A stretch of 20,000 bases of DNA, taken from IMG/VR virus record IMGVR_UViG_3300025921_000010, one strand, 5' to 3'. The notes under the pieces are model-generated. The model searched no databases. It worked only from the letters and a program-made list of their open reading frames with translations, and was not told where the DNA came from. Made by a program: the position numbers and the translations under genes. The stretch comes from an uncultured virus (IMG/VR IMGVR_UViG_3300025921_000010) (Duplodnaviria; Heunggongvirae; Uroviricota; Caudoviricetes; Crassvirales). Shown here piece after piece: positions 877-19,211 of the stretch. The first letter of the stretch is position 1, and the number at the start of each line of letters is the position of its first letter.

Positions 877-907
877 TGAAGATACAAAATGTATCGAATC
901 TACCAAA
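877..907 (-). promoter_or_regulatory. Class A promoter: TTTG-N19-TATCTTCA with palindrome GATACAAAATGTATC (881-895) overlapping the -7 box
   Basis: Matches the Bacteroidota sigma-A consensus TTTG-N19-21-TAnnTTTG. The same geometry recurs at 1939-1969 and 3538-3568. Confidence 0.75.
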
Positions 908-920
908 TTTATTTTAGAAA

Positions 921-971
921 TTTCTCCCCTTTTTTTACGATACAATTTGTATCTACCTGTCTAACTTTGTT
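921..971 (+). promoter_or_regulatory. Class B promoter module: TTTCTCCCCT-N8-GATACAATTTGTATC(939-953)-N8-TAACTTTG(962-969)TT
   Basis: One of four copies with identical 8/8 spacing; the -7 box is a perfect TAnnTTTG. Confidence 0.8.
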
Positions 972-976
972 CCAAG

Positions 977-1546
977 ATGAAATCTCCTTTTAAGTTTATA
1001 ATCAACATAGAAAAGCCTTACATGGATGAAGCGCCAACAGCTTCCGGTATAAAATTATACCGTGATACTACGTTTCATCCTGAAAACTACGCCCAAACTC
1101 ACGGTGTAGTAACAAGCACCCCTCTAAAAAATGATTTGGATGTTCAAAAAGGCGATGAAATCTACTTTTCTTATCAGGTAGTAGAGGATAAAGAACAAAG
1201 AGACCGCGATACTGACGTTCATAAAAATATGATTTTTTACAACGGGCAAAAATCATGGATGGTTAATACCGACCTCGTGTATTTCAGAGTTCGTAATGAC
1301 CAAATAGGAATGCTGAATAAATATGCTCTCGTGGATTTAATGGAAGAAGAACAAACGTCCTCTTTAGTCATTCCTGATTACTTAAAAAAAGTGAAGTTGT
1401 TAGGACAGGCACGAATCATTGCTTCCGCTAATCTAAAAAAGGGTGAAGTGATCTTATTTGACAAGCGGTTTATAGAAACTTATGAACTCTTTGGAAGGGA
1501 GTATTACATTTTGCACGAAGAAAGAATACTGGCGAAATTAGGTTAA
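977..1546 (+). CDS. Divergent tandem GroES-like (Cpn10-fold) phage protein
   Basis: First GroES-like unit: TASGIKL, HGVVTSTP, VQKGDEIYF. Second unit: TSSLVIPD, LKKGEVILF, GREYYILHEERILAKL. Confidence 0.7.
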   Translation: MKSPFKFIINIEKPYMDEAPTASGIKLYRDTTFHPENYAQTHGVVTSTPLKNDLDVQKGDEIYFSYQVVEDKEQRDRDTDVHKNMIFYNGQKSWMVNTDLVYFRVRNDQIGMLNKYALVDLMEEEQTSSLVIPDYLKKVKLLGQARIIASANLKKGEVILFDKRFIETYELFGREYYILHEERILAKLG

Positions 1547-1552
1547 TTAATA

Positions 1553-1918
1553 TTATTTAAAAATATTACTAATATTTTCAGTTCCCACCGGATTCATTGA
1601 ATGAATGAATATAACTGGCAAATCCGTTTTCATTTGTGCGTAAAATTCTTTCATCCATTTTGCACAATCAAGCCCGGTCTTTTCTAAGTACATAGGACTT
1701 TCCCATGTCTCTGAATTATAATGTTCATCAGCTAAATCATGGTCAAAAGAAACATGGGTAATTAAGTCAATATTTTCTGAAATTACTTTTACAAATTCAT
1801 CATAGTTCTTAACTAACTCCCATTGCTCATAATAAATTGGATTCTTTGCTCCAATTCTTCTGTGCATATATCTACCTGCTTCTTGTGGTATTCTGTAATC
1901 ATCTAGAAAGACTTTCAT
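1553..1918 (-). CDS. Cyclic-phosphate processing receiver domain (cREC-like) protein
   Basis: Signature motifs FLDDxR, SFDHDL, KTGLDCAKW and IHSMNPVG are characteristic of this standalone receiver-fold family. Confidence 0.8.
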   Translation of the reverse strand: MKVFLDDYRIPQEAGRYMHRRIGAKNPIYYEQWELVKNYDEFVKVISENIDLITHVSFDHDLADEHYNSETWESPMYLEKTGLDCAKWMKEFYAQMKTDLPVIFIHSMNPVGTENISNIFK

Positions 1919-1938
1919 CGGTAATGAGTTTTGAATAG

Positions 1939-1969
1939 TAAAGATACAAATTGTATCGAACTATCCAAA
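1939..1969 (-). promoter_or_regulatory. Class A promoter: TTTG-N19-TATCTTTA with palindrome GATACAAATTGTATC (1943-1957)
   Basis: Same geometry as 877-907; lies about 20 nt upstream of the 1918 start. Confidence 0.75.
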
Positions 1970-1971
1970 TT

Positions 1972-2022
1972 TTTCTCCCCTTTTTTCAAGATACAAAATG
2001 TATCATTCATTCTAATTTTGTT
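1972..2022 (+). promoter_or_regulatory. Class B promoter module with palindrome GATACAAAATGTATC (1990-2004) and -7 box TAATTTTG (2013-2020)
   Basis: Invariant TTTCTCCCCT-N8-palindrome-N8-TAAYTTTGTT layout. Confidence 0.8.
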
Positions 2023-2033
2023 CAAAGAGGATT

Positions 2034-2693
2034 ATGACCATTCAAGACATACATAACTGGATAGACTTTCTCACCAATAAAGCGCAAGGGGTTTACTTTA
2101 CCCACGAAGAAAAGGATATGGCTCTTGACAGGGCACAGATGCAGTATTTTAATGAGCAGTACGGTTATTATGCGCTTGCTCAAAAAATACAGGAATCTCT
2201 TTCTCCCTTTAAAACTAAGTACTCTTTTTTAGATACTCCAAGTGGACTAATAACTGCTCCGGCAGATTATTTATACCTCACAGGGGGTAAAATCGTGTAC
2301 ATGGAAGGTTCTCATACTCGTTATAAGGCTTTAAAAGTCCTTTCAGATGATGAACTGGCTTATAGATTAAACTCTCAGTTGCGTCCGGTAACAATCACAA
2401 GTCCGGTAGCAGTAATGGCAGGGAAAGTATCGGGCATCTCTCTGATTCAACTATATCCTAAGCAAACATTTGCAGGAGATATTGATTATCTGAGGCGACC
2501 CAAAGCACCTAAGTACGCTTATACGCAATCAGGTAGAACGTTCACTTATGATAGTGCAAATTCTGTACAAATAGAATGGGGCGAAAGTGAACTCAATGAA
2601 TTAATCATGCGTGCTTTAAGTTTCTTAGGTATCTCAATAGATGACCAGTTGGTAACTCAATATGCGGAAGCAAAAAGTAAATCAGTGAACTAA
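2034..2693 (+). CDS. Putative tail tubular/ring (head-tail adaptor) protein
   Basis: N-terminus NKAQGVYFTHEEKDMALDRAQMQYF and C-terminal DYLRRPKAP...IEW...ELIMRAL resemble crAss-like/Bacteroidota phage ring proteins. Lies upstream of the muzzle gene. Confidence 0.7.
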   Translation: MTIQDIHNWIDFLTNKAQGVYFTHEEKDMALDRAQMQYFNEQYGYYALAQKIQESLSPFKTKYSFLDTPSGLITAPADYLYLTGGKIVYMEGSHTRYKALKVLSDDELAYRLNSQLRPVTITSPVAVMAGKVSGISLIQLYPKQTFAGDIDYLRRPKAPKYAYTQSGRTFTYDSANSVQIEWGESELNELIMRALSFLGISIDDQLVTQYAEAKSKSVN

Positions 2694-3325
2694 TGACTAA
2701 ATACAAAATAGCCGAACAAATTCTTCTCATGCTCAAAGGAGGCAACATAAAAGCTGCCACCACTATTGAGTTGGAAGATATTATGGAGGCAGTAGGGCAG
2801 TACATTAATTCACACTTCAAGCAGGAACAACTTTCAGTGAATATGCCATCGGGTGAAACTATTCCCGAAGGTGTTATGCTTACCTATTATGATGGGCTTG
2901 TGCCTGTACAGTATAAAGGGGTTTCTAAAGTTACATTGCCGGTTACGCCAATTTCTTTGCCGAGAAATATGGGCATTATGCACTTATCAAGGTCAAACGA
3001 TATAAATGATGGATTTATCCCTACGCAAAACGGGCAATTAGCCTTACTAAAAGGAGAAAGGTTAATCAGCGATATGTCAGGACAGGTTAGTTATACTCCT
3101 TTTGGGAATGATTGTATTTTAAGCAAAGACCTAACAACAGAGACAGGAGTTACTGTAATTGCAGGATTGGTAGTCATGGATATTTCTAAGTATGGAGATT
3201 TTGATCCGCTTCCATTACCCGCTGATATGGAAGCTACTATCATTCAGGAAGTGTTTAAATTATTTTCAATGCAGATGCAGGGTGCGAAATTAGATGACCC
3301 AAGCGCAGAAAGACAACCAAAATGA
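2693..3325 (+). CDS. Putative tail ring protein 2
   Basis: TAATG overlap with the previous gene. C-terminal PLPLPADMEATII is typical of crAss-like ring proteins; size about 210 aa. Confidence 0.6.
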   Translation: MTKYKIAEQILLMLKGGNIKAATTIELEDIMEAVGQYINSHFKQEQLSVNMPSGETIPEGVMLTYYDGLVPVQYKGVSKVTLPVTPISLPRNMGIMHLSRSNDINDGFIPTQNGQLALLKGERLISDMSGQVSYTPFGNDCILSKDLTTETGVTVIAGLVVMDISKYGDFDPLPLPADMEATIIQEVFKLFSMQMQGAKLDDPSAERQPK

Positions 3326-3332
3326 GTTATTA

Positions 3333-3518
3333 TTAAGCATTCTTAGCAGCTTCGGTAAGTATAGCCCATTCTTCATCTGTAAACTTAACCTCTGAAATGC
3401 CTCTCTGGTCTAAATCTAAAACATAATCTACGCCTTCAATATCACGTATGTATTGAATGTATTTAGAAAGGACTGTATTTGAAATTGTATTGTCCTTAAT
3501 AGGTTCCCCTTCTTTCAT
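3333..3518 (-). CDS. Hypothetical protein (61 aa, MKEGEPIK...)
   Basis: The ORF-track start at 3548 is a TTG inside the promoter palindrome. The ATG at 3518 lies about 20 nt downstream of the class A -7 box, matching the other cassettes. Confidence 0.7.
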   Translation of the reverse strand: MKEGEPIKDNTISNTVLSKYIQYIRDIEGVDYVLDLDQRGISEVKFTDEEWAILTEAAKNA

Positions 3519-3537
3519 TAAGAATAGTTTTATTAAA

Positions 3538-3568
3538 TAAAGATACAAATTGTATCAAACCAACCAAA
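3538..3568 (-). promoter_or_regulatory. Class A promoter: TTTG-N19-TATCTTTA with palindrome GATACAAATTGTATC (3542-3556)
   Basis: Third copy with identical geometry. Confidence 0.75.
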
Positions 3569-3572
3569 TATT

Positions 3573-3623
3573 TTTCTCCCCTTTTTCTTAGATACAAAAT
3601 GTATCTCAACTTCTAACTTTGTT
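3573..3623 (+). promoter_or_regulatory. Class B promoter module with palindrome GATACAAAATGTATC (3591-3605) and -7 box TAACTTTG (3614-3621)
   Basis: Invariant layout and spacing. Confidence 0.8.
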
Positions 3624-3636
3624 GGAAGAAAAATAT

Positions 3637-4398
3637 ATGAGATATACTACGCTCGATAATATTTGCAGAAGCACATTAATGCAAGCCGGTTACAGCCTCC
3701 ATTGGTATCTACAAGCCTTAAAGAGTGCAAGTGATTGCCTTCGTGAACTAACTTTCGACACTTTACAAAATGTAAATACAGTTAACCTTACTTTATCTGA
3801 TTCCGGTTCGGCAGACCTGCCTTGTGATTATGTTGACTTCGTAAAAGTTGGTGTTCCGTATTCTCAATATGTCCGTCCACTTGTGCAGAAAGATTCTATC
3901 AACAGGCTTCAAAACAAAGATACTTCCGGCAATCCTATACCTTATTCCAATGCGATTGATGTAACGTATGGAGATACCGTTTCCGTTCCTCCATTTTTTG
4001 AAAGCGACTACATAAATGATAATGGTGAGCCTTTAGGAAGGCTATTTGGATTTAATGCAGGTTGGATTCAGGACGGCTTCAAAATATTGAGAGAAAGAGG
4101 ACAAATACAGGTTGACCAACAATTATGTGCGACCTCAATTTACTTGGAATATATCAGTGACGGACAATGTTCGGATAATGCTACTAAAGTTCATCCTTAC
4201 GCCCAAAAAACTATTGAGGCTTATATCTTATGGCAGTTCAAACAACATAGTCGGGCTTACGGAAGTCAGGAAAGAGAATTAGCGAAGGATGAATTTAGTT
4301 CCCAAAGAAGAATATTGAGGGCACGATTAACCGGACTTACTGCACAGGATATTAAACGGATAGTAAGGAAATCTTATTCAGCAACTACTAAAGGTTAA
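3637..4398 (+). CDS. Putative tail ring/structural protein 3 (253 aa)
   Basis: LPCDYVDFVKV, LEYISDG, KVHPYAQKTIEAYILW and RILRARL resemble conserved Bacteroidota podophage structural proteins. Start moved to ATG 3637 because the track's TTG at 3619 lies in the -7 box. Confidence 0.7.
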   Translation: MRYTTLDNICRSTLMQAGYSLHWYLQALKSASDCLRELTFDTLQNVNTVNLTLSDSGSADLPCDYVDFVKVGVPYSQYVRPLVQKDSINRLQNKDTSGNPIPYSNAIDVTYGDTVSVPPFFESDYINDNGEPLGRLFGFNAGWIQDGFKILRERGQIQVDQQLCATSIYLEYISDGQCSDNATKVHPYAQKTIEAYILWQFKQHSRAYGSQERELAKDEFSSQRRILRARLTGLTAQDIKRIVRKSYSATTKG

Positions 4399-4419
4399 AT
4401 CATCTTAAAACATACAAAA

Positions 4420-4566
4420 ATGAAACATCCGGGATTCAAAAGTGTACAATCCTCAATCGCAAGAAAAGAGGGAGTATCTAAGAAAGCAGCAGGAGCTATT
4501 CTCGCAGCAGCAAGTAGAAAAAATGCAAAAACCTCGTCCAATCCGAGACTAAAGCGTGTTAAATAA
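4420..4566 (+). CDS. Small basic protein, 48 aa (MKHPGFKSVQSSIARKEGVSKKAAGAILAAASRKNAKTSSNPRLKRVK), possibly DNA-binding or virion core
   Basis: Manual translation (below the ORF-track cutoff). A-rich leader, fills the intergenic gap, K/R/A-rich. Confidence 0.8.
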   Translation: MKHPGFKSVQSSIARKEGVSKKAAGAILAAASRKNAKTSSNPRLKRVK

Positions 4567-4627
4567 TTTGACATTAAAACAGACTAAACTTTAAAGCAGG
4601 AACCGGCTAAGCGGTTCATATATAAAC

Positions 4628-5032
4628 ATGAATACAAAAGAAAAAGCAATCAGATTTTTTACAGAGAAAGTAGCAGATAATGTAAAGTTTGCTTATGGTT
4701 CAGAAAAAGAGATGATGACACATCTTTTTTCTGGAGAAGTTACAATCCCGTTTACAGATGCTATCGATTATGTGACTGAACTGATTGGAGAGTGTAATCT
4801 TCCTTCAAGACATAAGCATGGTGATAAAGTTTTATTTGGTATGCAACCCTCAGATGGCGGATGGATTTGTCCGATGACAGGAACTGTTACAGGAGTGCAT
4901 TTCTACCAAAGTAAGGTTAAATACGATTTAGAACTTGGACTTGATGAAGAAAAAACCAGAATTTATAACGTGGATTCTCTTTATGTGCAACCATTTTCGG
5001 AAGAAGCATATAAATGTTATGCGCTGAAATAG
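4628..5032 (+). CDS. Hypothetical protein (134 aa) with a possible C-terminal SH3-like barrel
   Basis: ATG with A-rich leader. HKHGDKVLF...GTVTGVHF...VKYDL...IYNVDSLYV is an SH3/KOW-like pattern (inference). Confidence 0.75.
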   Translation: MNTKEKAIRFFTEKVADNVKFAYGSEKEMMTHLFSGEVTIPFTDAIDYVTELIGECNLPSRHKHGDKVLFGMQPSDGGWICPMTGTVTGVHFYQSKVKYDLELGLDEEKTRIYNVDSLYVQPFSEEAYKCYALK

Positions 5033-5079
5033 TAAACAAATCAAAACCTTTCTGTGTATAGGTCAACAGAATTAAAATT

Positions 5080-5319
5080 ATGGCAAGAATGAGAGCAAAA
5101 TTTACAGTTCAAACTATTGAAAAGTATGAAGGAGGAGAAACCCTTTATTTTTCCGCTGTTTGTCCAGACAAATTTGGAGAAAACGGAGAAAATGAAGATA
5201 ATGATTTCGCAAGATGGACACCATCCGGGAATCTTTCAATGAGTGTTACCAATCCAAATTTATTGGGAACTTTTAAGGAAGGTGAGAAGTATTATTTGGA
5301 CTTTACAAAAGCAGATTAA
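5080..5319 (+). CDS. Conserved phage hypothetical protein (79 aa)
   Basis: RAKF...F.AV...E...FARWTPSG.LSM.VTNP...F..G..YYLDFT matches a widespread small phage family of unknown function, recognised from memory. Confidence 0.8.
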   Translation: MARMRAKFTVQTIEKYEGGETLYFSAVCPDKFGENGENEDNDFARWTPSGNLSMSVTNPNLLGTFKEGEKYYLDFTKAD

Positions 5320-5323
5320 ATAA

Positions 5324-8300
5324 TTGGATAACTACCGCAAAATATTTAATGAGGGCTTAAATGCTGACGATGACTTCTCGGTAATATCGAAAGGGCAATG
5401 GGTGAACGCTTCCAATATCCGCACATTTACTACTGATAGCGGCGCAACAGGTCGTGTAGAAAATGTTGGCGGTACTTCTTTAATCTTTAGCTCGCTTCCT
5501 GCGGGAACGAATAAATGTATCGGGGCGGTGGCGGATGATTCGCAAAAGTTTATTGTATTCTTTAACTGGAACGATACGGAGGCAACCGATATTCGTGACA
5601 CACAAACAATCGTACATAAAAGTCACGGAATATACTGTCTTTATAACGGTGTTCCTTATACTGTATTATTAGATGTGGACGCTGTAGGGGGGCTTAATTT
5701 TGACAAATACTACCGCATAGATAGTAATTGTAAGATTAGCGGCGACCTCCTATATTGGACTGACAACAAAAACGAACCACGCAGACTTAACCTGAAAGCT
5801 GCGATAAATGCGTACCACGCCAACACTTTCCCAAGTGTTACTCCTTATGCTCTACGTTTAGCACCTGAAAACATCACAGTTATAAGACGTGCGCCTCAAC
5901 TTCCCTTAGAATGCACCAAAGCAGTAGGAGCAGATTTAGGTGTTACCGTAGTGCAGAATTTCATTAAGAATCTTTCACTTCAATTTTGTTATTATTACGT
6001 TTTTAGAGATTATGAAACTTCGGTTACTTCTACCCGCTCTCTCCTATTTAATTACAATTTCGATGAAGAGAATTTTGACGTTATAGACATCAAGATTCCC
6101 TTGTTAGAGAAAATCCAACAGGACGTTTCAGAAGTATATCTTGTGGCTCAAAATAAAGAATCAACGAAGTATTTCATTATTAAAAAATGGAGCAAAGAAA
6201 ACACTTCTGATTTAAGCGCCATTAATCTTCATAATTCAGGAACAAAACAACTTGAATTTATCTTCAAAGGAGATTATTTCGGAGCTGCCTTAGACGATGT
6301 ATTTTCAACGAAGCTGTATGAATCAATCCCGCTCCTCTCAAAGACGCTTGAACTGGCTAAAAACAGGCAATTCTTCGCTAATAATCTTGTAGGATATAAT
6401 ACACCCGCAATAACTTCGCTAACCACTTCAATATTGCAAGGGGGTACTACCTCAGAGACCGACAATGTTTATTGGACGGACTTTTTTATTAGTATTCACG
6501 GTACGCCTCAAAACATGGGCAGTGGGGCTATAAATTTTGACTACCATTATAATGTAGTCAAACTACCGTCCGCAAGTAACGGATATTACACATTAGCTGA
6601 TAACACTATGCCCGCTACTGCTGATTTTTCTGATATGATTTTTGCGGGCAATACACTCGATGAAGTAAGCCAGTACTTTGTATTCGATATAATGAGGTTG
6701 AATCCTGGTTACGATATTGATGTAATGGACAATTCTTTAAATGACACCACTACACCTGTTACCGTATCTAATATTGGCCTTATTGTTCCGCTTACCGGAC
6801 GATTCTTTAAAACGGATTCTACCTATAAGGTAAGTATTGAGTTTTTAGATGGCTTCCAGAGGAAATGCGGGGTAGTTGATGTAACCAACACGATAACAAT
6901 TCCAACAAGGAAGTTTACTTACGATTCGTACTATACGTATATAAAGTGGACTTTAAGTAATTCTAACGCTTTAATTGAAATACCGGAGTGGGCAACACAT
7001 TATCAGATAGTAATAACCCAAAGCCGGAATATTCTATTTTTTATTGAAGGAGTAGCGACCAAGTACGCTTATGTAAAAAAAGACGATGCCGGACTGTATA
7101 CTTATACCGACACTGTACCCGACGATGATTACGTAGGGCTGGCCGTTGACCTTTCAGAACTCCTCAATAATAATATCGGCTACACTTATCAGGATAAAGA
7201 CCTCGCTGTAATATACAGAGATAGCGTTCCTGCAATATATACGGAAGTTATCGGTACAGACGGAAAGTGGGTGATCCTAAACTATAAAGACATTGGAACC
7301 ATCGCTACTACTCCTGCGCCTTTTGTGTATGAAATTCGCTCCCCTAAAACACAAGGCAGTGACGATGTTTTTTACGAAGTTTCACAGTGTTACCCAATTA
7401 CGAATGCGGGAACTTCGGGCAGGGTTTTCAGTACCCTTACAGGTCAGGTAAGAGGCGATACCTATATCGTTAAGAGAACCGTAGGAGGAACTGATTACTA
7501 TATGGAATCTATCTCCCCTAATGATAAACACCCTTTAACGTGGTTTACCGATGCTGGCAGACCCAATGCGGTTGACAATATCGGACAAAAATTACTTCCA
7601 GATAACATTTGTTTTAGTGATGTGCTAATTGAGGGAACCAAAGTAAACGGGTTATCCTCGTTCTCAACTTTGAACGTAACAGACCTTGAATCCGAAAACG
7701 GTTCTATACAGAAACTACAACTCTCCAATAAAGTACAATCCGATGGTACTGTAATGCTTGCTATCTGTCAGGATGAAACGGTCTCAATGTATCTCGGCGA
7801 ACAAGAGTTATTCGATACACAAGGGAGCGCTTATGTAGCACAGGCTACCGGAGTAATCGGTTCTCATAAAGCCCTCAAAGGTTCTCTCGGTACTTCTAAT
7901 CCTGAATCAGTCTTTGAATATAACGGGCTGGTGTTTTGGTGGGATATCAGAAACGGTTGTGCGGTACAGTACGCAGATAACGGACTATCCCCAATTTCAA
8001 GTAAGAAGTTAGTTCGTGCCGCTAATTTGTTCTCTAATAAATTCGCTTCACTTACTAAGGCAGAAATAGAGGCACTCGGTAGCAATCCTTTTATTATCGG
8101 AGGATTCGACCCTTATCATAAAGAAGTCTTATTCACTATCCCCTCTACAGAAACACCGCCAAAAGGTTATTTAGAGGATTTTAATGTCGTATATCCATAC
8201 GACATTTATGATGGACAAGGAAAGACTTTAGTCTATAAGAACCCTACGGATATGTGGTTTGGCTCAATGAGTTTTCAGGCAGAGCAATTTGTAAAAATGG

Positions 8301-8743
8301 GCAATGACCTATACTCGTTTAAAGACGGGGCGTTATACAGTCATAACCAAAATACCACTACATTCTACGGAGTACCGTTTAAATCGCAACTGATGTTCTC
8401 GGCAAATCCCGGAGCAATACATACTTTTTACTCTCTCGGACTTGAAAGCAACAAAGTTCCTTCATGGGTACATTTTAGAACCGAAGACCCGTACACACAA
8501 AGTTCAGACCTTATAACTACGGATTTCATAGTAAAAGAAGGAGTTATAGGGGCTTCATTATTGAGAGACCGCCTTTCACCGAATGCTATCGGAGACTACA
8601 ATAAAAAAGAAGTAACAGGCGATAGATTAATTGGTAAAGCCCTTCTCATAATGTTAGAATACGAATTTCAAACTGATACTTCCAAACTTCAATTAAGAAT
8701 CATAGATGTAGGTAATAATGTAAGAACAGAGTATATCAAATGA
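5324..8743 (+). CDS. Tail stabilization / muzzle protein (P22 gp10-like, crAss-like), TTG start
   Basis: N-terminal F..GLNADDD...KGQWVNASNIR, LLYWTDNKNEPRRLN, NRQFFANN, GTSNPES, IIGGFDPYHKE and FYGV motifs. Beta-rich 1139-aa protein following the ring genes. Confidence 0.8.
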   Translation: MDNYRKIFNEGLNADDDFSVISKGQWVNASNIRTFTTDSGATGRVENVGGTSLIFSSLPAGTNKCIGAVADDSQKFIVFFNWNDTEATDIRDTQTIVHKSHGIYCLYNGVPYTVLLDVDAVGGLNFDKYYRIDSNCKISGDLLYWTDNKNEPRRLNLKAAINAYHANTFPSVTPYALRLAPENITVIRRAPQLPLECTKAVGADLGVTVVQNFIKNLSLQFCYYYVFRDYETSVTSTRSLLFNYNFDEENFDVIDIKIPLLEKIQQDVSEVYLVAQNKESTKYFIIKKWSKENTSDLSAINLHNSGTKQLEFIFKGDYFGAALDDVFSTKLYESIPLLSKTLELAKNRQFFANNLVGYNTPAITSLTTSILQGGTTSETDNVYWTDFFISIHGTPQNMGSGAINFDYHYNVVKLPSASNGYYTLADNTMPATADFSDMIFAGNTLDEVSQYFVFDIMRLNPGYDIDVMDNSLNDTTTPVTVSNIGLIVPLTGRFFKTDSTYKVSIEFLDGFQRKCGVVDVTNTITIPTRKFTYDSYYTYIKWTLSNSNALIEIPEWATHYQIVITQSRNILFFIEGVATKYAYVKKDDAGLYTYTDTVPDDDYVGLAVDLSELLNNNIGYTYQDKDLAVIYRDSVPAIYTEVIGTDGKWVILNYKDIGTIATTPAPFVYEIRSPKTQGSDDVFYEVSQCYPITNAGTSGRVFSTLTGQVRGDTYIVKRTVGGTDYYMESISPNDKHPLTWFTDAGRPNAVDNIGQKLLPDNICFSDVLIEGTKVNGLSSFSTLNVTDLESENGSIQKLQLSNKVQSDGTVMLAICQDETVSMYLGEQELFDTQGSAYVAQATGVIGSHKALKGSLGTSNPESVFEYNGLVFWWDIRNGCAVQYADNGLSPISSKKLVRAANLFSNKFASLTKAEIEALGSNPFIIGGFDPYHKEVLFTIPSTETPPKGYLEDFNVVYPYDIYDGQGKTLVYKNPTDMWFGSMSFQAEQFVKMGNDLYSFKDGALYSHNQNTTTFYGVPFKSQLMFSANPGAIHTFYSLGLESNKVPSWVHFRTEDPYTQSSDLITTDFIVKEGVIGASLLRDRLSPNAIGDYNKKEVTGDRLIGKALLIMLEYEFQTDTSKLQLRIIDVGNNVRTEYIK

Positions 8744-8904
8744 AAGACGTAAAGTGTCAATGTGGTAAAAAAGCCGTTCAGTTCTTCCCTAAATATTCAG
8801 TCGAAGAAGGTAAAGACATATCAAAACCGTATTGCGCATCCTGTCTTGCTAAAATGAGAAAAGAAGTAGCCGAAGATATTATGAAGAACGGAAGGCTGAA
8901 TTAA
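8740..8904 (+). CDS. Small putative zinc-finger protein, 54 aa (MKDVKCQCGKKAVQFF...PYCASCLAKMRKEVAEDIMKNGRLN)
   Basis: Manual translation. ATGA overlap with the muzzle stop; CxC-X23-CxxC pattern. Confidence 0.75.
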   Translation: MKDVKCQCGKKAVQFFPKYSVEEGKDISKPYCASCLAKMRKEVAEDIMKNGRLN

Positions 8905-8906
8905 TT

Positions 8907-8957
8907 TTTCTCCCCTAAAATTACGATACATTATGTATCATCGGTTCTAACTTTGTT
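8907..8957 (+). promoter_or_regulatory. Class B promoter module with palindrome GATACATTATGTATC (8925-8939) and -7 box TAACTTTG (8948-8955), no divergent partner
   Basis: Fourth copy with 8/8 spacing; heads the internal virion protein operon. Confidence 0.8.
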
Positions 8958-8976
8958 CTGACTAAAATAAAGTACT

Positions 8977-9705: not shown

Positions 9706-9706
9706 T

Positions 9707-11323: not shown

Positions 11324-11324
11324 T

Positions 11325-11507
11325 ATGAACGATCCACGACTTGATTATATTAGTAAAGTTTATAGCGCATTACAAGATAATGTTAGTGGTTTTAATAAAA
11401 CTCCCGGCGATTTTTTAGATTCAATGAACGACCCCAACTACAGAAATAAGGTTTATTCAGCTTTAAAAGATAACGTTCAAGGTTTTAATAAATCACAGCA
11501 AGACTTT
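11325..11507 (+). repeat. Two tandem ~31-33 aa repeats at the N-terminus of the giant protein (MNDP..Y..KVYSAL.DNV.GFNK...DF)
   Basis: YISKVYSALQDNVSGFNKTPGDF versus YRNKVYSALKDNVQGFNKSQQDF. Confidence 0.9.
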
Positions 11508-14500
11508 GAGAGTATAACTGCTCAAAAAAAAAATTCTTTACCGACTTCAACTCCTTCAAAGTATGTGGCCGCACCGGAAGATACAGAAGATTCACAACCT
11601 TCTTCGGCCGTTGCTACGCCTTCGCAAAGTCAATCAGGTTCCGTAGCCCAATCATCATCACAAGGAACGCAGCCAGTACAACCACAGCAGCAACCGACTA
11701 AACCACCGCCTTTTGACCCGAATACGTTCATGCGTCAATCAAGGGCGAACGTAATACAACAACCTGTACAAGATAATACTTTAGCAGTACAGCCTCAACA
11801 AACTAAGGCTGCTATTGACAGCCAATTAGAGAAACCGGAATATCAGAAACGAAAAGCCGAAATTAATAAAGAAGCGGTAATCAATTCTACAGCTCAATAT
11901 CTCAAAAATAAAGGAATAAACGCTCCAGTAGGTTCTGCTCAATTTAATCAGCAACTTGCCAAAACACAAGAATTAGTTAATAGTGGGCAAGCTACCGTTG
12001 CTATCAATCCTGACGGACAAATAGGGCTAAAAAGAGTAACAGGATTCTTAGAGAACATTAAGAATGGATGGGACGAGGCAACTAAGAGTGCAGATGAAGC
12101 TAATGACTTCACTAATAATATGACTACTCAACAAAGAGTAGATTATGTTAAATCGCACGATATACCACAACCTGACCAATTTATAGGAGAACAACCTTCT
12201 ACTTTGGGTTCTTTAGGGCATTTCATGGGTGGCGCTGCTCCGTTCTTAGGCAAAGCCGCCGTAGGTGCAGGTATAGGCGCTCTTGCAATAGCTGGTGCTC
12301 CTGAAAGTATGGGTGCTTCACTTACAGGATTACCAACGGCCATGTCTTTCATCCTTACTGCACCCGATATGGCGAATCAGGGAGCGCAACAAGAAATAAT
12401 AAGGAGATACCAGATACTCAAAAATCAGAATCCAGATATGTCCGATGTGGACGCAATGGAGGAGGCGGGTAAAGGTGCTCTTGTAGGAGGTATAGGTGGA
12501 ATTTTAACCAATGCTGCCTTAATGGGTACTGGACTTAAAACACCCCTTTCTCTCGAAGCAAAAGGAGTTGTAGGGAAGACTTTGCAGGAAGTAGGAAAAT
12601 CAGCAGTTCACATGGGAGGCGTATCAGCGGGAGTAACAGCGGCGCAACAACTCGAAGGTGAAGCAGAGGGTATTCATACTTCAACATCCGATAAATTAAA
12701 AGCAATAGAGGACAGTTTTAAAGAAAATGCTACCACAGGGGCTATGCTTACAGCTTTGATGCACGGAGTACCCAAGATAATGGAATCTGCCATTAAATAC
12801 TCCTTAAAAGACACACCTCCTGACCAGATAAGAAACGTACTTCAAGCTAATGAAAACGCCGGAACTGTACCAGAAGGTACTACCGAAAAGGTAATGAAGG
12901 ACATAAGTTCTTATAATGACGCTCTTAATAAAACAGTTGATGGACTTTCCCCCGAAGCCACCGCATCCGTCGCAGGATTAATACAGAAGAAAAACAGCCT
13001 TATCGAAGAATCCAAAACAAAAGACGATTCGTTCAAACCTATCTATAAGGAAAAGATTGACGCCATAGACCAACAAATACAAGACATTCAAAGAACAGGC
13101 AAACCATTTGAACATGAGATAGACGAAGTAACAGGCAAACCTTATCAACAACCTACTTATGACGATGTAGCCCAACAACAAGTACAGGATTTAGCAAATA
13201 ATATCGCTAAAGGAAAGAGAGTAGAAAAACCAGAAGATTTACAAACAGAAGCTAACTTCCCGAAAGAACTTGAAGATGAACTTCAAAACAGATTAAAAGA
13301 AGATCAGCAAGCAGGTAAAGAAAATTCAGGCGTACAACAAAATATTAATTCTTTCTTAAAGGATAAACAGCCGACCATTCAGAGTGCCGTAATAACTATC
13401 AACGGTAAAACTTATGAAGGCGAAAACCATGCAGAGGCTATATTAAAAGCCAAACAAGACGGGCAGGATATTTCACAAGTGGATAGACAAGGTCAAGGTC
13501 AATTTAAGTTATCTGACGGCACAATAATCAGCAGAGATGAAGCTAAACAACGTTTCGGACAAGATAGGGCTGAACTACTAATACCACAAGATGAAGCAGC
13601 AAAACAAGCAGATAAGCAATACAGGGAAATAACTACTCCGAGCAACGAAGAACCTGCTCCCGTAAGAGCAGCAGATAAACCGGTTGAACCCGTAAGTTCT
13701 CCGGTTATTTCTGATAAAGAAGAAGAGGCTTTGTATGGAAAGAAAGGTGAGCCAAGAGTAAAATTAGATTTCTCCTCAAAAGGTAAAAATATAGTAGAAC
13801 CTCCTAAGCCTATTTCAGAAATGAATAGTGATGAATTGTACGATTATTCCCAACAGGTTAAAAAGGCTCTCGCAAAACAGGATAAAGAATTTGAAGGTAA
13901 AACAGATGACGAAAAAGAAGCCGCAGGTTATTATGATTATGTTGATAATGTAAGTGATTTAAGAGATACAGCGCAAAGGGTAAACTTTGTTGAAAATTCA
14001 GAAAACCTTGACGAATTGGCTTCATCTACAAAATCAGCATTGCGTGATTTTAATAAAGATAATCCTTCTGACGAATCTTTAGCTATATTAAACGCCGCAA
14101 AAAATAAAGCGGAAGAAATGAATATTGCGCCTGAAGATTTGATAAAGGCTGTTATAAAAAAAGTTGGCAATGATTATAAAGATAAAGATGATGCTGAATT
14201 TATGATGCGCAGCTATCTTGAAAAAATAACACCAAAAGAATCTTCTTCCAGTAAACCAACAAATACAGAAGAAAATAATTCTTCAAATAAACCGGAAGTA
14301 GTACCTTCAACCCCCGATTTAGAAGGTTTTGGTGGTAGAGGTGGAAGAAACAGGCTTTACGAAAGAGTGAAAAACATAGACGAACCCACTGATATTGATG
14401 GTAAAATATTACATTACTTCGCAGGAGGTGGTAAAGTTCATCCTGAAAGTTTCAGCAAGGAAGTAGTAGGGATGAAAAGAAAGGGGTATGGCGACAAAGA

Positions 14501-17500
14501 AGGTTCTTATCCGTCCGAAGTAAAAGGTAATACGCTTGTAAAGGCTACTGATGAAAATGGCAAACCAAATCCGACTATTAAACAGCTTTCAGAATCATTT
14601 GGTGACGGTACAAACGACCAAGAAATCAGAAATAAGATTATCGATGTTTTACAATCTCATGGAAGCAGAGAATCAGCGGCAACAGAACTTATAAACAGGT
14701 ACGATCAGGAATATATAGAAGCTAAACATCAAAAAGAAGAAAACGAATATTGGGAAGGGCTGCATAAACAAGAAGTAGCGGCAGAAGAAAACTACCTCAC
14801 AGAGAAAGGAAAAGAACAAGATGAAATCGAGCAAGACCCAGAGTATATTAAACACTTAATAAATCAATATGAAACTGAAACAGTTCCGGCAAATGATAAG
14901 CGGTCTGACACCGGAAGTAAGGCAGAAAGTGGTGAGGCACGTAGCACTCCAAAGGACACTCAGCCAGAGGGGATTGATAAATCCGAACGACCAAGTGACC
15001 TACGAGGATCTTCAGAAGATAAGCCAGAACCAGATAAAGGCAAACCAGAAACTCCTAAAGGGAAAATAGGCGACCCTTTACGTCATTTTGCTGACATTGT
15101 AGAGAGAGGAAAAATCTCCAAATTAGGGGGCTTTAGAGCCTCAACAGGCTTCGATGCTGTTTGGGATGGTTCATTAACTGTTGTAGCAGAAACACTCCGT
15201 AAAACGGCTGATTTAGCCGATGCTATACAAGCCGGACTTGAACACATTAAAAATTCAGATTGGTATAAAGGTCTTACAGATAAAAAAGACTTCGATGAAA
15301 AATATGTTGCTCACTTAGAAGGTGAGTATAGTAAGTTCAAAGAACAACCCAAAGAACAAAATGAACAGGAAGGAAAATCCGGTACACTCGGTATTTCACA
15401 TGAAGCACTTAATGACCTTGCTCAAAAAATAGGATTGCCTGAAATTGAGAGAGGCAAATCGTATGATCCAAAAGAACTTGCCGACAGGGGGCGTAAATTA
15501 CTCAATGCAGGAGCAGACCCAAATAAAATAGCAGATACCTTTTATACTAATGGACGTACTGATGAAAATGGAGTGTCAGTAATACGAGCCAAGATAGAGC
15601 AACTATTCAAAACAGGAGAACAAATTACTGATAAGGAAAGCACTTCATTTAAAGAAAATTTCGACCAGTTATCTAAGTTCATGCAGGTAGAAAAAGATAT
15701 GGGTACTTTCGCTCATAGGGTAATGAAATCCTTTCAGGGGCAACGTGACATAGACACTGATTCTTTTGTTTATGTATCAATGGCTGCGCAGCGTAAATTA
15801 GGAAGGGAATTAAATAGCGAGGAAAAAGCTAAAATTGATGGCCTTACAAAACAGGTATCAAATCTAAAAAATAAAGTAAATGAGTACGAAGAAAGGCTTA
15901 AAAATGCGATCGATAAAGATTTAACAGGGGAAAGTAAACCAGAAGTCAAATTGTCTATTTCAGAGAAGGCAAAGAAACTCGCAGACGTAATCAGAAAAGG
16001 GAAAGCTCATAAACCAGGCGTATTCAGTGCCGCTACTCCCGCAAGCCTTGTATGGGATGCGGCCGTTGAAACAACCGCACAAGTGGTAGAGAAAGGCGGC
16101 CAGTTAGTAGATGCTATCCAAAAAGGCGTTGAATACATTAAAGGGACGGATTGGTATAAAGGACTTTCCGAAGATAAAAAGAAAGAAGCAGAGGACGCTT
16201 TCGTTAAGGCGCACAGGGATTCAGAAGGCACTTCACTTGAAAGCCTTCAAGAGATGCTCGCTGACAAAAAGGGAGACAAGTTTACACCACAGGAAGCTAA
16301 ATCAATTTGGGATTACGCAAAGACACAATACTTAAATAAAGGCGGTGACTATCTTCAAATGTTATCAGGAGTAGCTAATGATTTAGGTTACACGATGACG
16401 CAGGTAAGTAAAGCTATCATTACTCCCAAAACACAACGTATTTCGGATGAAATGTGGAAACAAAGAAGCGAACTTTACAAAAATAGATCGTCTGTAAAAA
16501 GATGGCTTGATAATAAGGGCGGCAATCTGGCTTACAAAGGATTTAAAACTGCTATCGATACGTTTAGAGAAGCTGCGGTATTTGGTCATGGTGCCATCTT
16601 CATTGGAACCCACGCAATGCCTACTTTCTTTGACATACCAAGAGCTAAATATGCAATAAAGGGATTTTTTAATGCTTATAGAGCAGCTTACGGAAAGACA
16701 GGTAATTATGAGTTAATGATAGCAGATTTGAAAAATTCGCCTAACTATCTCAAAGCACAGCGAGCCGGACTACAAAACAATCCTGAACGAATTGGCTCAG
16801 ATACTGAAATTATCAGCCATCACTTAAAATGGTTTACAGAAGCAGGAGAAAGAGGGTTTAATGCCATCAAAATACTAAGACAGAATTTATTCGATTCTCA
16901 TTATAACGCTTTACCGGAAACCCTAAAACAAGACCCGACAGTATTAAAAGAAATAGCTCAGATAATAAATAATGCCACAGGCGCAACAAACGCTAAAGTA
17001 CCCAACTGGATGAGAGAGGTAACTTTTGCAGGTGGTATGGAAATTTCAAGATGGGAAAGAATTATAAAAAACCCTGCTAAGGCGGCTGATATATTAGCGA
17101 AGGTAGCCAAAGGAAATGCAACTCCTGCTGAAAAAGTATTTTTAAGAGTTTGGGCAACAAGGGCTGGAACAATAGCGGGTGTTTACACTTCTGCATTAAT
17201 TATGAACAATGCGATTAACGCCTACCTGTACCCCGATGATGATAAGAAAAGAATTAATTTCTTCAACCCATCTAAAGGGGATTGGTTTAAATTAAAATTC
17301 GGAAGTGTAGTAATTGATCCGACTTCCGGTATGGGTACAAGTTTAAGGTTTTTAACTACGATTGCCTCCATGCCATTTCACAGTGAAGATTATATTAAAT
17401 CTCACAATCAGGGGGACAACCGAAAAAATGCACTTGCTAAGAAAGTCTTGGGTTATGGATTAGGAAAACTTTCTCCCGGATATACCACAATTGGAGAATT

Positions 17501-17816
17501 GGTTCTTAAACATGATTATACTGGTAATACAATTCCTTTCTCAAATGACAGACCTTTTTATAAGAGCGCAAGGAAATTAACCGCACTCGAATATATTGAA
17601 CATAAAGCGCCATTACCTTTAGCAGAAGGGTTTGAAATATACCACGATGCAGCACACGAGGCAGGTGCGAACGATGGAATATGGAATGCTTATACTAAAG
17701 GGTTGTTTTTTGGAGGTTTGAGTGGGGCTACTGGTGTACGGTCTTATGAAGACACCAAAGCTGCCGAACCTGCTAAAAAAGAAACTTCTGTTCCTTATTA
17801 TCATTCACCCGATTGA
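11325..17816 (+). CDS. Giant internal virion / large polyvalent-type ejected protein (2163 aa)
   Basis: N-terminal duplicated motif, Q/P/S linker, Gly/Ala-rich membrane-type helices (about 12200-12790), charged helical regions, an internal duplicated domain and a C-terminal hydrophobic region. Confidence 0.75.
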   Translation: MNDPRLDYISKVYSALQDNVSGFNKTPGDFLDSMNDPNYRNKVYSALKDNVQGFNKSQQDFESITAQKKNSLPTSTPSKYVAAPEDTEDSQPSSAVATPSQSQSGSVAQSSSQGTQPVQPQQQPTKPPPFDPNTFMRQSRANVIQQPVQDNTLAVQPQQTKAAIDSQLEKPEYQKRKAEINKEAVINSTAQYLKNKGINAPVGSAQFNQQLAKTQELVNSGQATVAINPDGQIGLKRVTGFLENIKNGWDEATKSADEANDFTNNMTTQQRVDYVKSHDIPQPDQFIGEQPSTLGSLGHFMGGAAPFLGKAAVGAGIGALAIAGAPESMGASLTGLPTAMSFILTAPDMANQGAQQEIIRRYQILKNQNPDMSDVDAMEEAGKGALVGGIGGILTNAALMGTGLKTPLSLEAKGVVGKTLQEVGKSAVHMGGVSAGVTAAQQLEGEAEGIHTSTSDKLKAIEDSFKENATTGAMLTALMHGVPKIMESAIKYSLKDTPPDQIRNVLQANENAGTVPEGTTEKVMKDISSYNDALNKTVDGLSPEATASVAGLIQKKNSLIEESKTKDDSFKPIYKEKIDAIDQQIQDIQRTGKPFEHEIDEVTGKPYQQPTYDDVAQQQVQDLANNIAKGKRVEKPEDLQTEANFPKELEDELQNRLKEDQQAGKENSGVQQNINSFLKDKQPTIQSAVITINGKTYEGENHAEAILKAKQDGQDISQVDRQGQGQFKLSDGTIISRDEAKQRFGQDRAELLIPQDEAAKQADKQYREITTPSNEEPAPVRAADKPVEPVSSPVISDKEEEALYGKKGEPRVKLDFSSKGKNIVEPPKPISEMNSDELYDYSQQVKKALAKQDKEFEGKTDDEKEAAGYYDYVDNVSDLRDTAQRVNFVENSENLDELASSTKSALRDFNKDNPSDESLAILNAAKNKAEEMNIAPEDLIKAVIKKVGNDYKDKDDAEFMMRSYLEKITPKESSSSKPTNTEENNSSNKPEVVPSTPDLEGFGGRGGRNRLYERVKNIDEPTDIDGKILHYFAGGGKVHPESFSKEVVGMKRKGYGDKEGSYPSEVKGNTLVKATDENGKPNPTIKQLSESFGDGTNDQEIRNKIIDVLQSHGSRESAATELINRYDQEYIEAKHQKEENEYWEGLHKQEVAAEENYLTEKGKEQDEIEQDPEYIKHLINQYETETVPANDKRSDTGSKAESGEARSTPKDTQPEGIDKSERPSDLRGSSEDKPEPDKGKPETPKGKIGDPLRHFADIVERGKISKLGGFRASTGFDAVWDGSLTVVAETLRKTADLADAIQAGLEHIKNSDWYKGLTDKKDFDEKYVAHLEGEYSKFKEQPKEQNEQEGKSGTLGISHEALNDLAQKIGLPEIERGKSYDPKELADRGRKLLNAGADPNKIADTFYTNGRTDENGVSVIRAKIEQLFKTGEQITDKESTSFKENFDQLSKFMQVEKDMGTFAHRVMKSFQGQRDIDTDSFVYVSMAAQRKLGRELNSEEKAKIDGLTKQVSNLKNKVNEYEERLKNAIDKDLTGESKPEVKLSISEKAKKLADVIRKGKAHKPGVFSAATPASLVWDAAVETTAQVVEKGGQLVDAIQKGVEYIKGTDWYKGLSEDKKKEAEDAFVKAHRDSEGTSLESLQEMLADKKGDKFTPQEAKSIWDYAKTQYLNKGGDYLQMLSGVANDLGYTMTQVSKAIITPKTQRISDEMWKQRSELYKNRSSVKRWLDNKGGNLAYKGFKTAIDTFREAAVFGHGAIFIGTHAMPTFFDIPRAKYAIKGFFNAYRAAYGKTGNYELMIADLKNSPNYLKAQRAGLQNNPERIGSDTEIISHHLKWFTEAGERGFNAIKILRQNLFDSHYNALPETLKQDPTVLKEIAQIINNATGATNAKVPNWMREVTFAGGMEISRWERIIKNPAKAADILAKVAKGNATPAEKVFLRVWATRAGTIAGVYTSALIMNNAINAYLYPDDDKKRINFFNPSKGDWFKLKFGSVVIDPTSGMGTSLRFLTTIASMPFHSEDYIKSHNQGDNRKNALAKKVLGYGLGKLSPGYTTIGELVLKHDYTGNTIPFSNDRPFYKSARKLTALEYIEHKAPLPLAEGFEIYHDAAHEAGANDGIWNAYTKGLFFGGLSGATGVRSYEDTKAAEPAKKETSVPYYHSPD
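14869..15069 (+). CDS. Candidate overprinted gene (66 aa) in the +1 frame within the giant protein gene
   Basis: ATG preceded by the A/T-rich leader ACACTTAATAAATCAAT. The product looks like amphipathic helices, while the main frame over the same interval is a disordered linker. Confidence 0.5.
   Translation: MKLKQFRQMISGLTPEVRQKVVRHVALQRTLSQRGLINPNDQVTYEDLQKISQNQIKANQKLLKGK
15087..16181 (+). repeat. Internal ~67-aa domain duplicated in the giant protein (15087-15287 and 15978-16181)
   Basis: ADIVERGK..GGF..S....VWDG...VAE......LADAIQAGLEHIKNSDWYKGL versus ADVIRKGK..GVF..A....VWDA...TAQ......LVDAIQKGVEYIKGTDWYKGL. Confidence 0.9.
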
Positions 17817-18268
17817 AAATATTCCCAATTACCGTTGAACTGATTCCTTTGGTAATATCCTACTTTGCTCCCATTTGAATTAAAGACATTAATTCTATTT
17901 TTATCAAATTGATCTGCTTGTTTATAACCTATAATGTTCCCGTTCCGGTCATAAATATTTTCTTTAGATTTATCGAATGCGTCTTTTTGCTGTGAGGATT
18001 CCTGATTTCCACGGTTGTCATAGGTATTTGTTTTATTGTTATTAAATGCGTCTTTTTTTATAGTATTTACAAGATTTCCCCTTGAATCGTACACATCAAT
18101 TTGGTTACTATTAAAAGCGTCCGGTTTATAATATCCAAGTAAATTTCCTCTATCATCTTTTATGTTTGTTTTACTTCTGTCAAATGGGTCTTGCTCATAT
18201 ACATAAGATTGCGCAAATAAGTTTGCTGAAATAAAAGCAGTGATTACGAGTACTAATAATTTTTTCAT
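17801..18268 (-). CDS. Secreted/periplasmic protein with Sec signal peptide and ~5.5 tandem 23-aa beta-hairpin repeats
   Basis: Signal peptide MKKLLVLVITAFISANLFA-Q. Repeat consensus xxxxD(A/P/Q)F(D/N)xxxx(N/D)(I/V/T)YDxxGNxxx. Confidence 0.85.
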   Translation of the reverse strand: MKKLLVLVITAFISANLFAQSYVYEQDPFDRSKTNIKDDRGNLLGYYKPDAFNSNQIDVYDSRGNLVNTIKKDAFNNNKTNTYDNRGNQESSQQKDAFDKSKENIYDRNGNIIGYKQADQFDKNRINVFNSNGSKVGYYQRNQFNGNWEYFQSGE

Positions 18269-18287
18269 ATTTCATTATTTGATACAA

Positions 18288-18319
18288 TAAACATAATACA
18301 ATCATTTTTAATCTGCAAA
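18288..18319 (-). promoter_or_regulatory. Host-type promoter TTTG-N20-TATGTTTA for the secreted repeat protein, with only a half palindrome (GATACA, 18281-18286)
   Basis: Fits Bacteroidota -33/-7 spacing and lies about 20 nt upstream of the start at 18268. Confidence 0.55.
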
Positions 18320-18331
18320 TAAAATTTAATT

Positions 18332-18350
18332 GATACATTTTGTATCTTTG
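18332..18350 (+). promoter_or_regulatory. Class A-like site: palindrome GATACATTTTGTATC (18332-18346) overlapping a perfect -7 box TATCTTTG (18343-18350)
   Basis: Exact palindrome; no clear -33 TTTG. Confidence 0.7.
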
Positions 18351-18354
18351 GGTT

Positions 18355-19194
18355 ATGCAGCAAGATTCCTCTTTACCACAGCCAAAAGACAATAAATATT
18401 ACGTCCAAAAATACGGACAGTACATGGCCGGAAGAAACACCGATGAAAAGTTAGCCGGACAAACCTTTCAGGACGCTACCAAACCGTACAAAGATTTAGT
18501 ACTCGATGCGTCCAAAAAGACCGGAATACCACCGGAACTACTGTTTGCTTCTATTAACGAAGAAGGACTAAGAGATATGGTTGCTAAAGACGAATATTCC
18601 GGTGATGACAAATACCCGATAAGTGGTTTTGCTCATTTCGGACTTGATACTTTTGGAGACGCTTACCCTGAACTTGTTAAAAAGGGTTACTTACCTGACA
18701 ATATGGACTTTTCGCCGCAAGTAGCGACCAATGAAAGAGGAGGTAGAGTTCACACCGCTAACTTTAAAACGGTAGATGATGCTATTGCAGCTAAAGCAGC
18801 TATGCTTAAAAACGTACAAGACCAAGTAGAGGCTTATGCTGCCAAAAGAGGCTATAAACTAAGCGATAAAAGTAAAAACTTCTTTATGCTGGCAGGGTAT
18901 AACGGAGGTACAGGACTTGCACAAAAAATGATGGATTCCTACAACGATAAAGGAGTGCTTCAAAATGATGCTTACCTAACTAAAAAACCTTCAAGCTATC
19001 AAGGCGTGTATGATAATGTTCAACGGCGTATGATACCTGCGCAAGCATGGGCTGATGACGGTATTTTCGTTCCACGTGAAACGGTACAAAATGTATCGGC
19101 GCAACCTGCCCAACCACAAGGACAGCCTATTTACGGCCAAGATGGAAATGTTATGGCTTACAATGTGAATGGGCAGATTATTGCAGCAAATTGA
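18355..19194 (+). CDS. Lytic transglycosylase (SLT)/lysozyme-like fold protein, 279 aa
   Basis: YKDLVLDASKKTGIPPELLFASINEEG (catalytic Glu helix), G.AHFG.D, and LAGYNGGTG (AYNAG-like motif). Start moved to ATG 18355 because the track's TTG at 18340 lies within the palindrome. Confidence 0.7.
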   Translation: MQQDSSLPQPKDNKYYVQKYGQYMAGRNTDEKLAGQTFQDATKPYKDLVLDASKKTGIPPELLFASINEEGLRDMVAKDEYSGDDKYPISGFAHFGLDTFGDAYPELVKKGYLPDNMDFSPQVATNERGGRVHTANFKTVDDAIAAKAAMLKNVQDQVEAYAAKRGYKLSDKSKNFFMLAGYNGGTGLAQKMMDSYNDKGVLQNDAYLTKKPSSYQGVYDNVQRRMIPAQAWADDGIFVPRETVQNVSAQPAQPQGQPIYGQDGNVMAYNVNGQIIAAN

Positions 19195-19211
19195 TACATA
19201 TTGTATCTTTA
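19180..19211 (+). promoter_or_regulatory. Class A promoter: ATTG-N20-TATCTTTA with palindrome GATACATATTGTATC (19193-19207)
   Basis: The palindrome overlaps the -7 box and the TGA stop of the upstream gene. Confidence 0.7.

Follow-up and report, generated by a model that had tools for sequence, protein, structure and literature searches.

A probable repressor operator with the PBSX Xre consensus at accessory and virion promoters in a Bacteroidota podovirus, and a candidate asymmetric late-promoter box

Several described systems bear on the one examined here. For the Xre repressor of PBSX (Bacillus subtilis; general background in PMC8347963) a 15-bp consensus has been published from DBTBS (PMC4243335). 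Phage P1 places one repressor, C1, at many promoters and uses host RNA polymerase at many separate, positively controlled late promoters (PMC8198154, PMC10695390), the 11 late promoters each carrying a 9-bp inverted repeat bound by Lpa (PMC10695390). The lytic crAss-like Bacteroidota podovirus phi14:2 has a virion RNA polymerase and a tripartite middle/late promoter motif read by host RNA polymerase (bioRxiv 10.1101/2020.03.07.982082). The timing of late genes in temperate Bacteroidota phages without an RNA polymerase or sigma factor of their own is little described. Here we analyze a 20,000-nt stretch of DNA (the window) inside the linear virus record IMGVR_UViG_3300025921_000010 (G000; 47,419 bp, 66% complete by CheckV), which comes from a soil bacterial virus. 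The genes of the record (a GroES-like pair, a terminase, a portal, ring proteins and a muzzle of crAss-like type) are those of a podovirus morphogenesis module of the kind seen in Bacteroidota phages, and it carries a repeated 15-bp palindrome, GATACA-N3-TGTATC. On comparative sequence grounds, we consider it rather likely that a small XRE (HTH_3) repressor encoded by the phage uses this palindrome as its operator and so controls a middle/late regulon. The same operator stands on nearly all virion and accessory gene promoters and probably holds them shut together.

Perfect copies of the palindrome begin at positions 881, 939, 1943, 1990, 3542, 3591, 8925, 18332 and 19193 of the window, as the preliminary description of this DNA had reported, and none of 200 dinucleotide shuffles contained a match. 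A tenth, one-mismatch copy (19083–19097) lies within an open reading frame (ORF), 110 bp upstream of the site at 19193, and is a possible auxiliary operator. At other spacer lengths from 0 to 9, no perfect pair of half-sites occurs anywhere in the G000 record. The 3-nt spacer is A/T-only at all nine window sites, as had been stated, but this is not a rule, for C and G occur in the spacers of a close relative. Written as GRTAYA-N3-TRTAYC, the perfect palindrome occurs 16 times in the 47-kb record, 10 times in the closest complete relative, G001 (IMGVR_UViG_3300038412_000083; 74 kb with terminal repeats, portal 77% identical), and three times in the distant relative G411 (portal 40% identity; may be incomplete), and these are the only three positives among 17 family genomes, G000 included. 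Among 82 portal loci, perfect GRTACA-N3-TGTAYC was confined to G001 and G411. Pattern scans of the genome and metagenome contigs returned 67 matches, two of which (L022 and L058, both close relatives) have a -7 box at N8; the others look like chance matches. Twelve of the 16 sites in the record are paired, 47–58 bp apart, and form six copies of one ~90-bp divergent-promoter cassette. The pairs inside the window (881/939, 1943/1990 and 3542/3591), overlooked in the preliminary description, are joined by three beyond it (20038/20086, 25131/25179 and 29005/29052).

The left arm of the cassette (class A) is a host-type minus-strand promoter, TTTG-N19/20-TATCTTTA-like, in which the palindrome takes up the greater part of the spacer and runs on across the first half of the -7 box. 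The promoter serves a small accessory gene or operon that points leftward. In cassette 1 the class A palindrome (881–895) has the -7-like sequence TATCTTCA at 884–877 and a -33 TTTG at 907–904, both on the minus strand; the class A palindromes of cassettes 2 and 3 occupy 1943–1957 and 3542–3556. Two more lie on the plus strand. The first, spanning 18332–18350 with its perfect -7 box TATCTTTG (18343–18350) and no -33, is the same 15-mer as the PBSX Xre consensus (PMC4243335); the operator can thus no longer be called undescribed, as it was at first. The second (19193–19211) precedes terS, the probable terminase small subunit gene. The claim that the TATC end forms half of the -7 box stood as far as the overlap with the -7 region goes, but the boxes are looser than claimed: TAnnTTTG is perfect only at 18332, with TATCTTTA at 1943, 3542 and 19193. 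At 881, 1943 and 3542 a -33 TTTG stands at N19; there is none at 18332 (best candidate with three mismatches), and the one at 19193 is weak. A palindrome so placed over the -7 box would have a repressing geometry, as had been suggested. Class A sites also precede accessory operons in G001; behind one of them (L020 8568–12497) lie, by our own ORF reading, about six probable glycosyltransferase/methyltransferase genes.

Class B, the right arm, drives the next virion gene block and follows a fixed grammar, TTTCTCCYC-N9-palindrome-N8-TAAYTTTG, in 14 of 14 promoters. At the four class B sites of the window (939, 1990, 3591 and 8925) TAAYTTTG stands exactly 8 nt downstream, as first described; the TTTCTCCCC box 9 nt upstream of each palindrome had been passed over. 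In cassette 1 the plus-strand box TTTCTCCCC, followed by a T-run, lies at 921–929, the palindrome at 939–953 and the plus-strand -7 box TAACTTTG at 962–969. Cassette 2 (1943–2020) has the box at 1972–1980, the class B palindrome at 1990–2004 and the -7 box at 2013–2020; in cassette 3 (3542–3621) these elements occupy 3573–3581, 3591–3605 and 3614–3621, and in a stand-alone plus-strand class B promoter (8907–8955) they occupy 8907–8915, 8925–8939 and 8948–8955. Wherever a -7 box follows a palindrome at N8, the upstream box is there too, at N9 (7/7 in G000 and 5/5 in G001), and the 14 promoters with the box 32 nt from the -7 box, found in four close-clade sequences, all hold the palindrome at the same place. 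In G001, class B promoters stand ahead of five orthologous blocks. These promoters lack a normal -33 element and have the appearance of activator dependence, in line with the original proposal.

The palindrome and the box part company in more distant relatives. All five TTTCATACC boxes of G411 have a -7-like box at N32–33, and four of the five spacers contain nothing palindrome-like (best 4–6 mismatches), the fifth holding a 2-mismatch site that overlaps the -7 box. In G416, AAYCACCCC stands at N32 for three of four CACCCCC boxes, with no palindrome in the spacer, and G404, G405 and G406 have upstream boxes of their own with T-runs. Because these promoters keep their boxes, mostly without the palindrome, we read the family-wide late element as an asymmetric 9-mer, together with its T-run, set at a constant 32 nt ahead of the -7 box, the palindrome being optional. 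The palindrome does stand, like the P1 inverted repeat, at a fixed position upstream of a host -10-type box at all 14 close-clade class B sites. Unlike that repeat, which is an activator site, it appears dispensable in relatives, since at the orthologous late promoters of G411 and G416 both box and spacing persist in its absence; the view that the palindrome binder is an activator is not borne out by this comparison. G411 uses its palindromes in class A geometry and, in one instance, 4 nt downstream of the terS -7 box, over the start site. In G415 the terS and scaffold start points are overlain by another palindrome, GGTTAR-N5-YTAACC, which begins at the last base of the -7 box, and the box at N32 was not seen in the two G415 promoters examined. 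A palindrome found now in the spacer, now over the -7 box and now over the start point is, by established principle, best read as a repressor operator, and over a start point, as in G411 and G415, repression fits and activation does not. The equation of class A with early and class B with late genes also found no support: terS has a class A promoter in G000 but a class B one in G001, so the classes do not correspond to early and late genes. Neither the early replication operon nor the CI/Cro gap of G001 has an N3 site.

That a dimeric phage protein would use the palindrome as its operator, as originally proposed, is supported, and the neighborhoods of its copies point to an XRE protein. An unbiased scan of viral contigs for tandem copies yielded 58 loci, 39 with an XRE ORF within 300 bp; the recognition helix begins S-R in 35 of these 39, although the loci are highly redundant, with many near-duplicates. 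We take the 28–30-kb tandem-copy loci to be PBSX-like. Among the 39 is XRE66 of G001, a 66-residue HTH_3 protein with the helix TRSAVNAIE, which is immediately followed by two sites, one of them overlapped by its stop codon. It shares with PBSX Xre the HTH_3/XRE domain, the T-Q...[S/T]-R helix signature and the lack of a peptidase domain. Orthologues were found in four of 22 family records (E ≤ 1.3e-15), plus one weak match, and the two genomes in which the helix starts T-R are G001 and G411, both palindrome-bearing. A wider XRE scan gave 28 loci, from which five near-duplicates of L330 and two weak matches were left out. In 13 of the 21 loci examined there is a homologue of p116, a gene of the operon described further below, and the XRE gene and p116 diverge in 11, which resembles a repressor/lytic-operon layout. 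Across 11 p116 promoters, the GRTAYA-N3 site is perfect in both T-R loci and absent from all seven loci with glycine-rich G/A-S/A-I/V-G-A helices, which have another palindrome in common. Operator sequence thus appears to track the XRE recognition helix, which fits XRE66 as the binder, with few independent cases. G414, which has no XRE66 orthologue, carries a different dispersed palindrome, TGCAWC-N3-GTTGCA (1931, 30562, 31382 and 46096).

In G001 and G411 the operator guards the p116 promoter, downstream of which lies a p180 family gene. Its members are stand-alone proteins of 120–180 residues present in nine of the 17 genomes and in 207 database representatives; Pfam, PHROGs and PDB sequence searches gave no name for p116 or the p180 family, and ESM Atlas no usable match for p180 or p116. 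The predicted structure of the G416 member (pLDDT 91.3) best matches DnaA domain IV (PDB 3pvp and 1j1v; Z 9.9, root-mean-square deviation 2.5 over 91 aligned residues, ~10% identity), with four DnaA chains at Z 7.7–9.9 and the next unrelated row at 5.4. DnaA domain IV reads asymmetric 9-mers (DnaA boxes), and the late box is likewise an asymmetric 9-mer; the p180 family is therefore a natural candidate for the box. Unlike DnaA, p180 is a stand-alone phage protein without an AAA+ domain, and a role for it in transcription is presumptive. On the strength of this fold prediction we nominate it only tentatively as the late-box activator. A winged-HTH family in about ten relatives offers an alternative candidate.

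In the preferred account, an XRE dimer would block host RNA polymerase at class A promoters by covering the spacer and -7 box, and at class B promoters by covering the -33 position and spacer. Upon its release, class A promoters, including that of the p116–p180 operon, would fire with host polymerase alone, and a different protein would bind TTTCTCCYC 32 nt upstream of the -7 box and switch class B on. The late genes would be locked twice, because the same operator also guards the G001 operon that holds the best activator candidate. The lock may maintain lysogeny or time the lytic cycle; XRE66 ends the G001 early operon, and the many operators could titrate it during replication. Motif, geometry, conservation, gene neighborhoods and fold prediction are what the analysis shows; the binding protein, the repression and the identity of the activator are inferred from them.

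Several observations weigh against this account. The N9 and N8 bases flanking the class B palindrome are variable while its position is invariant (14/14), as expected of an activator or co-activator site. The covariation of helix and operator is based on two T-R genomes, and L328, with an A-R-S helix and two HTH domains, has a different palindrome and no GRTAYA-N3 site. Neither an XRE gene nor a p180 family gene was found in the 66%-complete G000 record, so the XRE link rests on G001; 55 proteins scanned from the same record included no integrase, repressor or replication gene. The G001 XRE gene is the last of the early operon, is co-oriented with p116 and lacks a palindrome at the promoter from which it is itself expressed, in place of the PBSX-type autoregulation and clustering of operators between the repressor gene and a lytic operon that diverges from it; the divergent XRE/p116 layout does occur elsewhere in the family, where the palindromes are different ones. 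G001 also encodes a CI-like protein of 139 residues with the helix SRAHLFK, and has N5-spaced copies of the same half-sites in the CI/Cro gap. As for p180, a Z of 9.9 for a helical domain lies below the tool's caution level of about 13, Foldseek returned no match at E ≤ 0.001, three relatives that look complete (G413, G414 and G415) lack the family, and a DnaA-IV fold could equally serve replication.

Were a single dimeric protein to repress class A and activate or co-activate class B, as Lpa acts at the inverted repeats of the 11 P1 late promoters, the constant N9/N8 position of the palindrome over the expected -33 would be explained in all 14 class B promoters. We regard this as unlikely, since G411 places its palindrome over the terS start and outside the box-N32-(-7) spacers, terS changes class between genomes and the early replication operon carries no N3 site. 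More doubtful still is binding by another phage protein, most plausibly the CI-like 139-residue immunity repressor or its Cro partner, which would put the late regulon under direct immunity control as with P1 C1. The gene content of G001 marks it as temperate, with two genes of the integrase family and a divergent pair resembling CI/Cro (the pair being our own reading with no Pfam hit). The CI-like helix starts S-R-A as in Firmicutes repressors, and the only two one-mismatch N5-spaced sites in 74 kb both lie in the CI/Cro gap, but their spacing is N5 and not N3. Moreover, G411 has the N3 palindrome and an XRE66 orthologue, and no homologue of the 139-residue protein was found in the other 16 genomes, G411 being possibly incomplete. 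Within the gap (L018, about 1890–1980), two or three GATACA-N5-TGTATC-like 17-mers share the half-sites of the N3 operator, and two regulators may read one half-site at different spacings in G001.

Readings without a phage DNA-binding regulator fare worse. A site for a host transcription factor (SOS-, Fur- or metal-regulator type) would tie virion production to the state of the host, and in several genomes the pattern is somewhat commoner than its reversed control. This is nevertheless very unlikely: in 401 genomes from the class of a Flavobacterium metagenome-assembled genome, a sample outside which the true host may lie, 188 have a match, none has more than five, and 24 of 25 inspected sites fall inside ORFs; moreover, where the phage XRE helix differs, so does the palindrome. 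Two of the genomes counted (G182 and G096) are marked unpublished, and one inspected site is from G182; nothing else reported here draws on these two. Published Bacteroidetes non-canonical SOS (LexA) boxes read GGA-N5-TCC or CTAA-N5-TTAG (PMC8565304); the palindrome matches neither. The palindrome could also form a hairpin or cruciform with a 6-bp stem and 3-nt loop, serving as promoter for an N4- or crAss-like virion RNA polymerase, and the 2163-residue virion protein is near the size of phi14:2 gp66 (2180 residues) and holds one DIDTD string. Yet that protein has no PDB match to any RNA polymerase, its G001 counterpart lacks DxDxD and has only short stretches in common with it, the arms of the palindrome vary independently to give A-C mismatches, and host-type -7 boxes stand beside every site. 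With neither a conserved DFDxD nor similarity to gp66 found at the sequence level, this last reading was rejected as exceedingly improbable, and host RNA polymerase is supported as the likely enzyme, as had been thought.

The XRE reading thus describes a system that works like PBSX Xre, with its operators dispersed as those of P1 C1 are and superimposed on late promoters under positive control, and that is a member of neither. Firmicutes loci cluster three to five operators in the gap between repressor and early genes, whereas here 10–16 are spread over accessory and virion promoters, and the likeness to PBSX Xre more likely reflects convergence or a shared HTH code than membership. Unlike in P1, the operators sit on the late promoters themselves. 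The family resembles phi14:2, likewise a Bacteroidota podovirus with a related muzzle, in having a tripartite promoter motif for host RNA polymerase; it differs in being temperate in G001, with no virion RNA polymerase detected. Cultured phages are only distant (best terL matches 28.8%), and a capsid-protein scan of viral contigs returned no locus. A literature search largely confined to open-access papers found no description of the operator, promoter or layout in a Bacteroidota phage. The operator sequence is known, and P1 already offers dispersed repressor operators, so that what is new is the layout and the candidate activator.

The genes served by these promoters run along the window as follows. 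Two GroES-like co-chaperonin paralogues diverge from one shared cassette, each apparently a tandem or extended Cpn10: one (318–854, minus strand; Pfam Cpn10, E 2.4e-21) is the first gene of a leftward operon and a class A target, and the other (977–1546, plus strand; E 1.2e-7) is a class B target; the family is present in 15 of 17 relatives. A class A target at 1553–1918 (minus strand) encodes a cyclic-phosphate processing receiver domain (PF20274). It is absent together with its cassette from relatives, including G001, and the joints (1528–2033) were seen in two DNA runs; because relatives lack gene and cassette together, accessory genes seem to insert with a cassette. Class B promoters then serve two virion ring/connector genes (2034–3325, plus strand; phrog_14543 virion structural protein for 2034–2693), both in 17 of 17 genomes, and a block at 3637–8743 (plus strand) with a virion ring protein, small ORFs and a crAss-like muzzle protein (phrog_13977 and phrog_14478; PF25731, E 6.3e-13, below curated coverage). 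Between them lies a small inserted accessory gene (3333–3518, minus strand), a class A target with no family match above cut-off, for which the ATG at 3518 is preferred over a TTG inside the palindrome. Three probable ejection (cargo) protein genes (8977–17816, plus strand) are assigned by position and conservation; the large one (11325–17816), which is the 2163-residue protein, is mosaic, only three short stretches matching its 2990-residue G001 counterpart. A leftward accessory gene (17801–18268, minus strand) with a signal-peptide-like start, DxF-N repeats and no function match has only a half-site (18281) upstream and could be expressed in the lysogen. It is followed on the plus strand by a 279-residue gene (18355–19194), possibly a lytic transglycosylase by a motif of our own reading, with no Pfam match, and by terS (19225–19806), named by its position directly upstream of terL, 47.6% identical to the G001 gene before terL and of a family present in 15 of 17 genomes. 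Low-depth contigs from RNA run X15 fall on several structural genes; they show neither starts nor strand, may be DNA and were not used as evidence. Beyond the window (L003 4139–8303), the early-operon end with its DUF559-like gene is inverted relative to the structural module when compared with G001. Elsewhere in the family, the end of the G001 record (L021 16675–17049) holds an ORF of tandem 9-residue repeats, and G405 (69057–70329; L254 about 9050–10330) carries within the phage genome about 15 repeats, many at a 66-nt period with variable spacers, resembling clustered regularly interspaced short palindromic repeats.

What is gained is a two-element promoter grammar, an activator box and a repressor operator, with a candidate protein for each. 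Natural variants are available in which operator and recognition helix change together, and the scheme is testable with short DNA fragments and two small proteins. In its fullest form, which we hold to be possible rather than probable, late activation throughout this widespread, uncultured Bacteroidota podovirus family would be carried out by a stand-alone protein of DnaA-IV fold on an asymmetric 9-mer, and in this clade an XRE repressor would lock both the activator operon and every late promoter. With 10–16 operators per genome, the repressor could be titrated as the DNA replicates, which would set the timing of virion synthesis, and each accessory gene would arrive with a ready-made divergent cassette linking it to the regulon. 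A phage late activator of DnaA-IV fold, if true, would be of a class that we did not find described in the literature.

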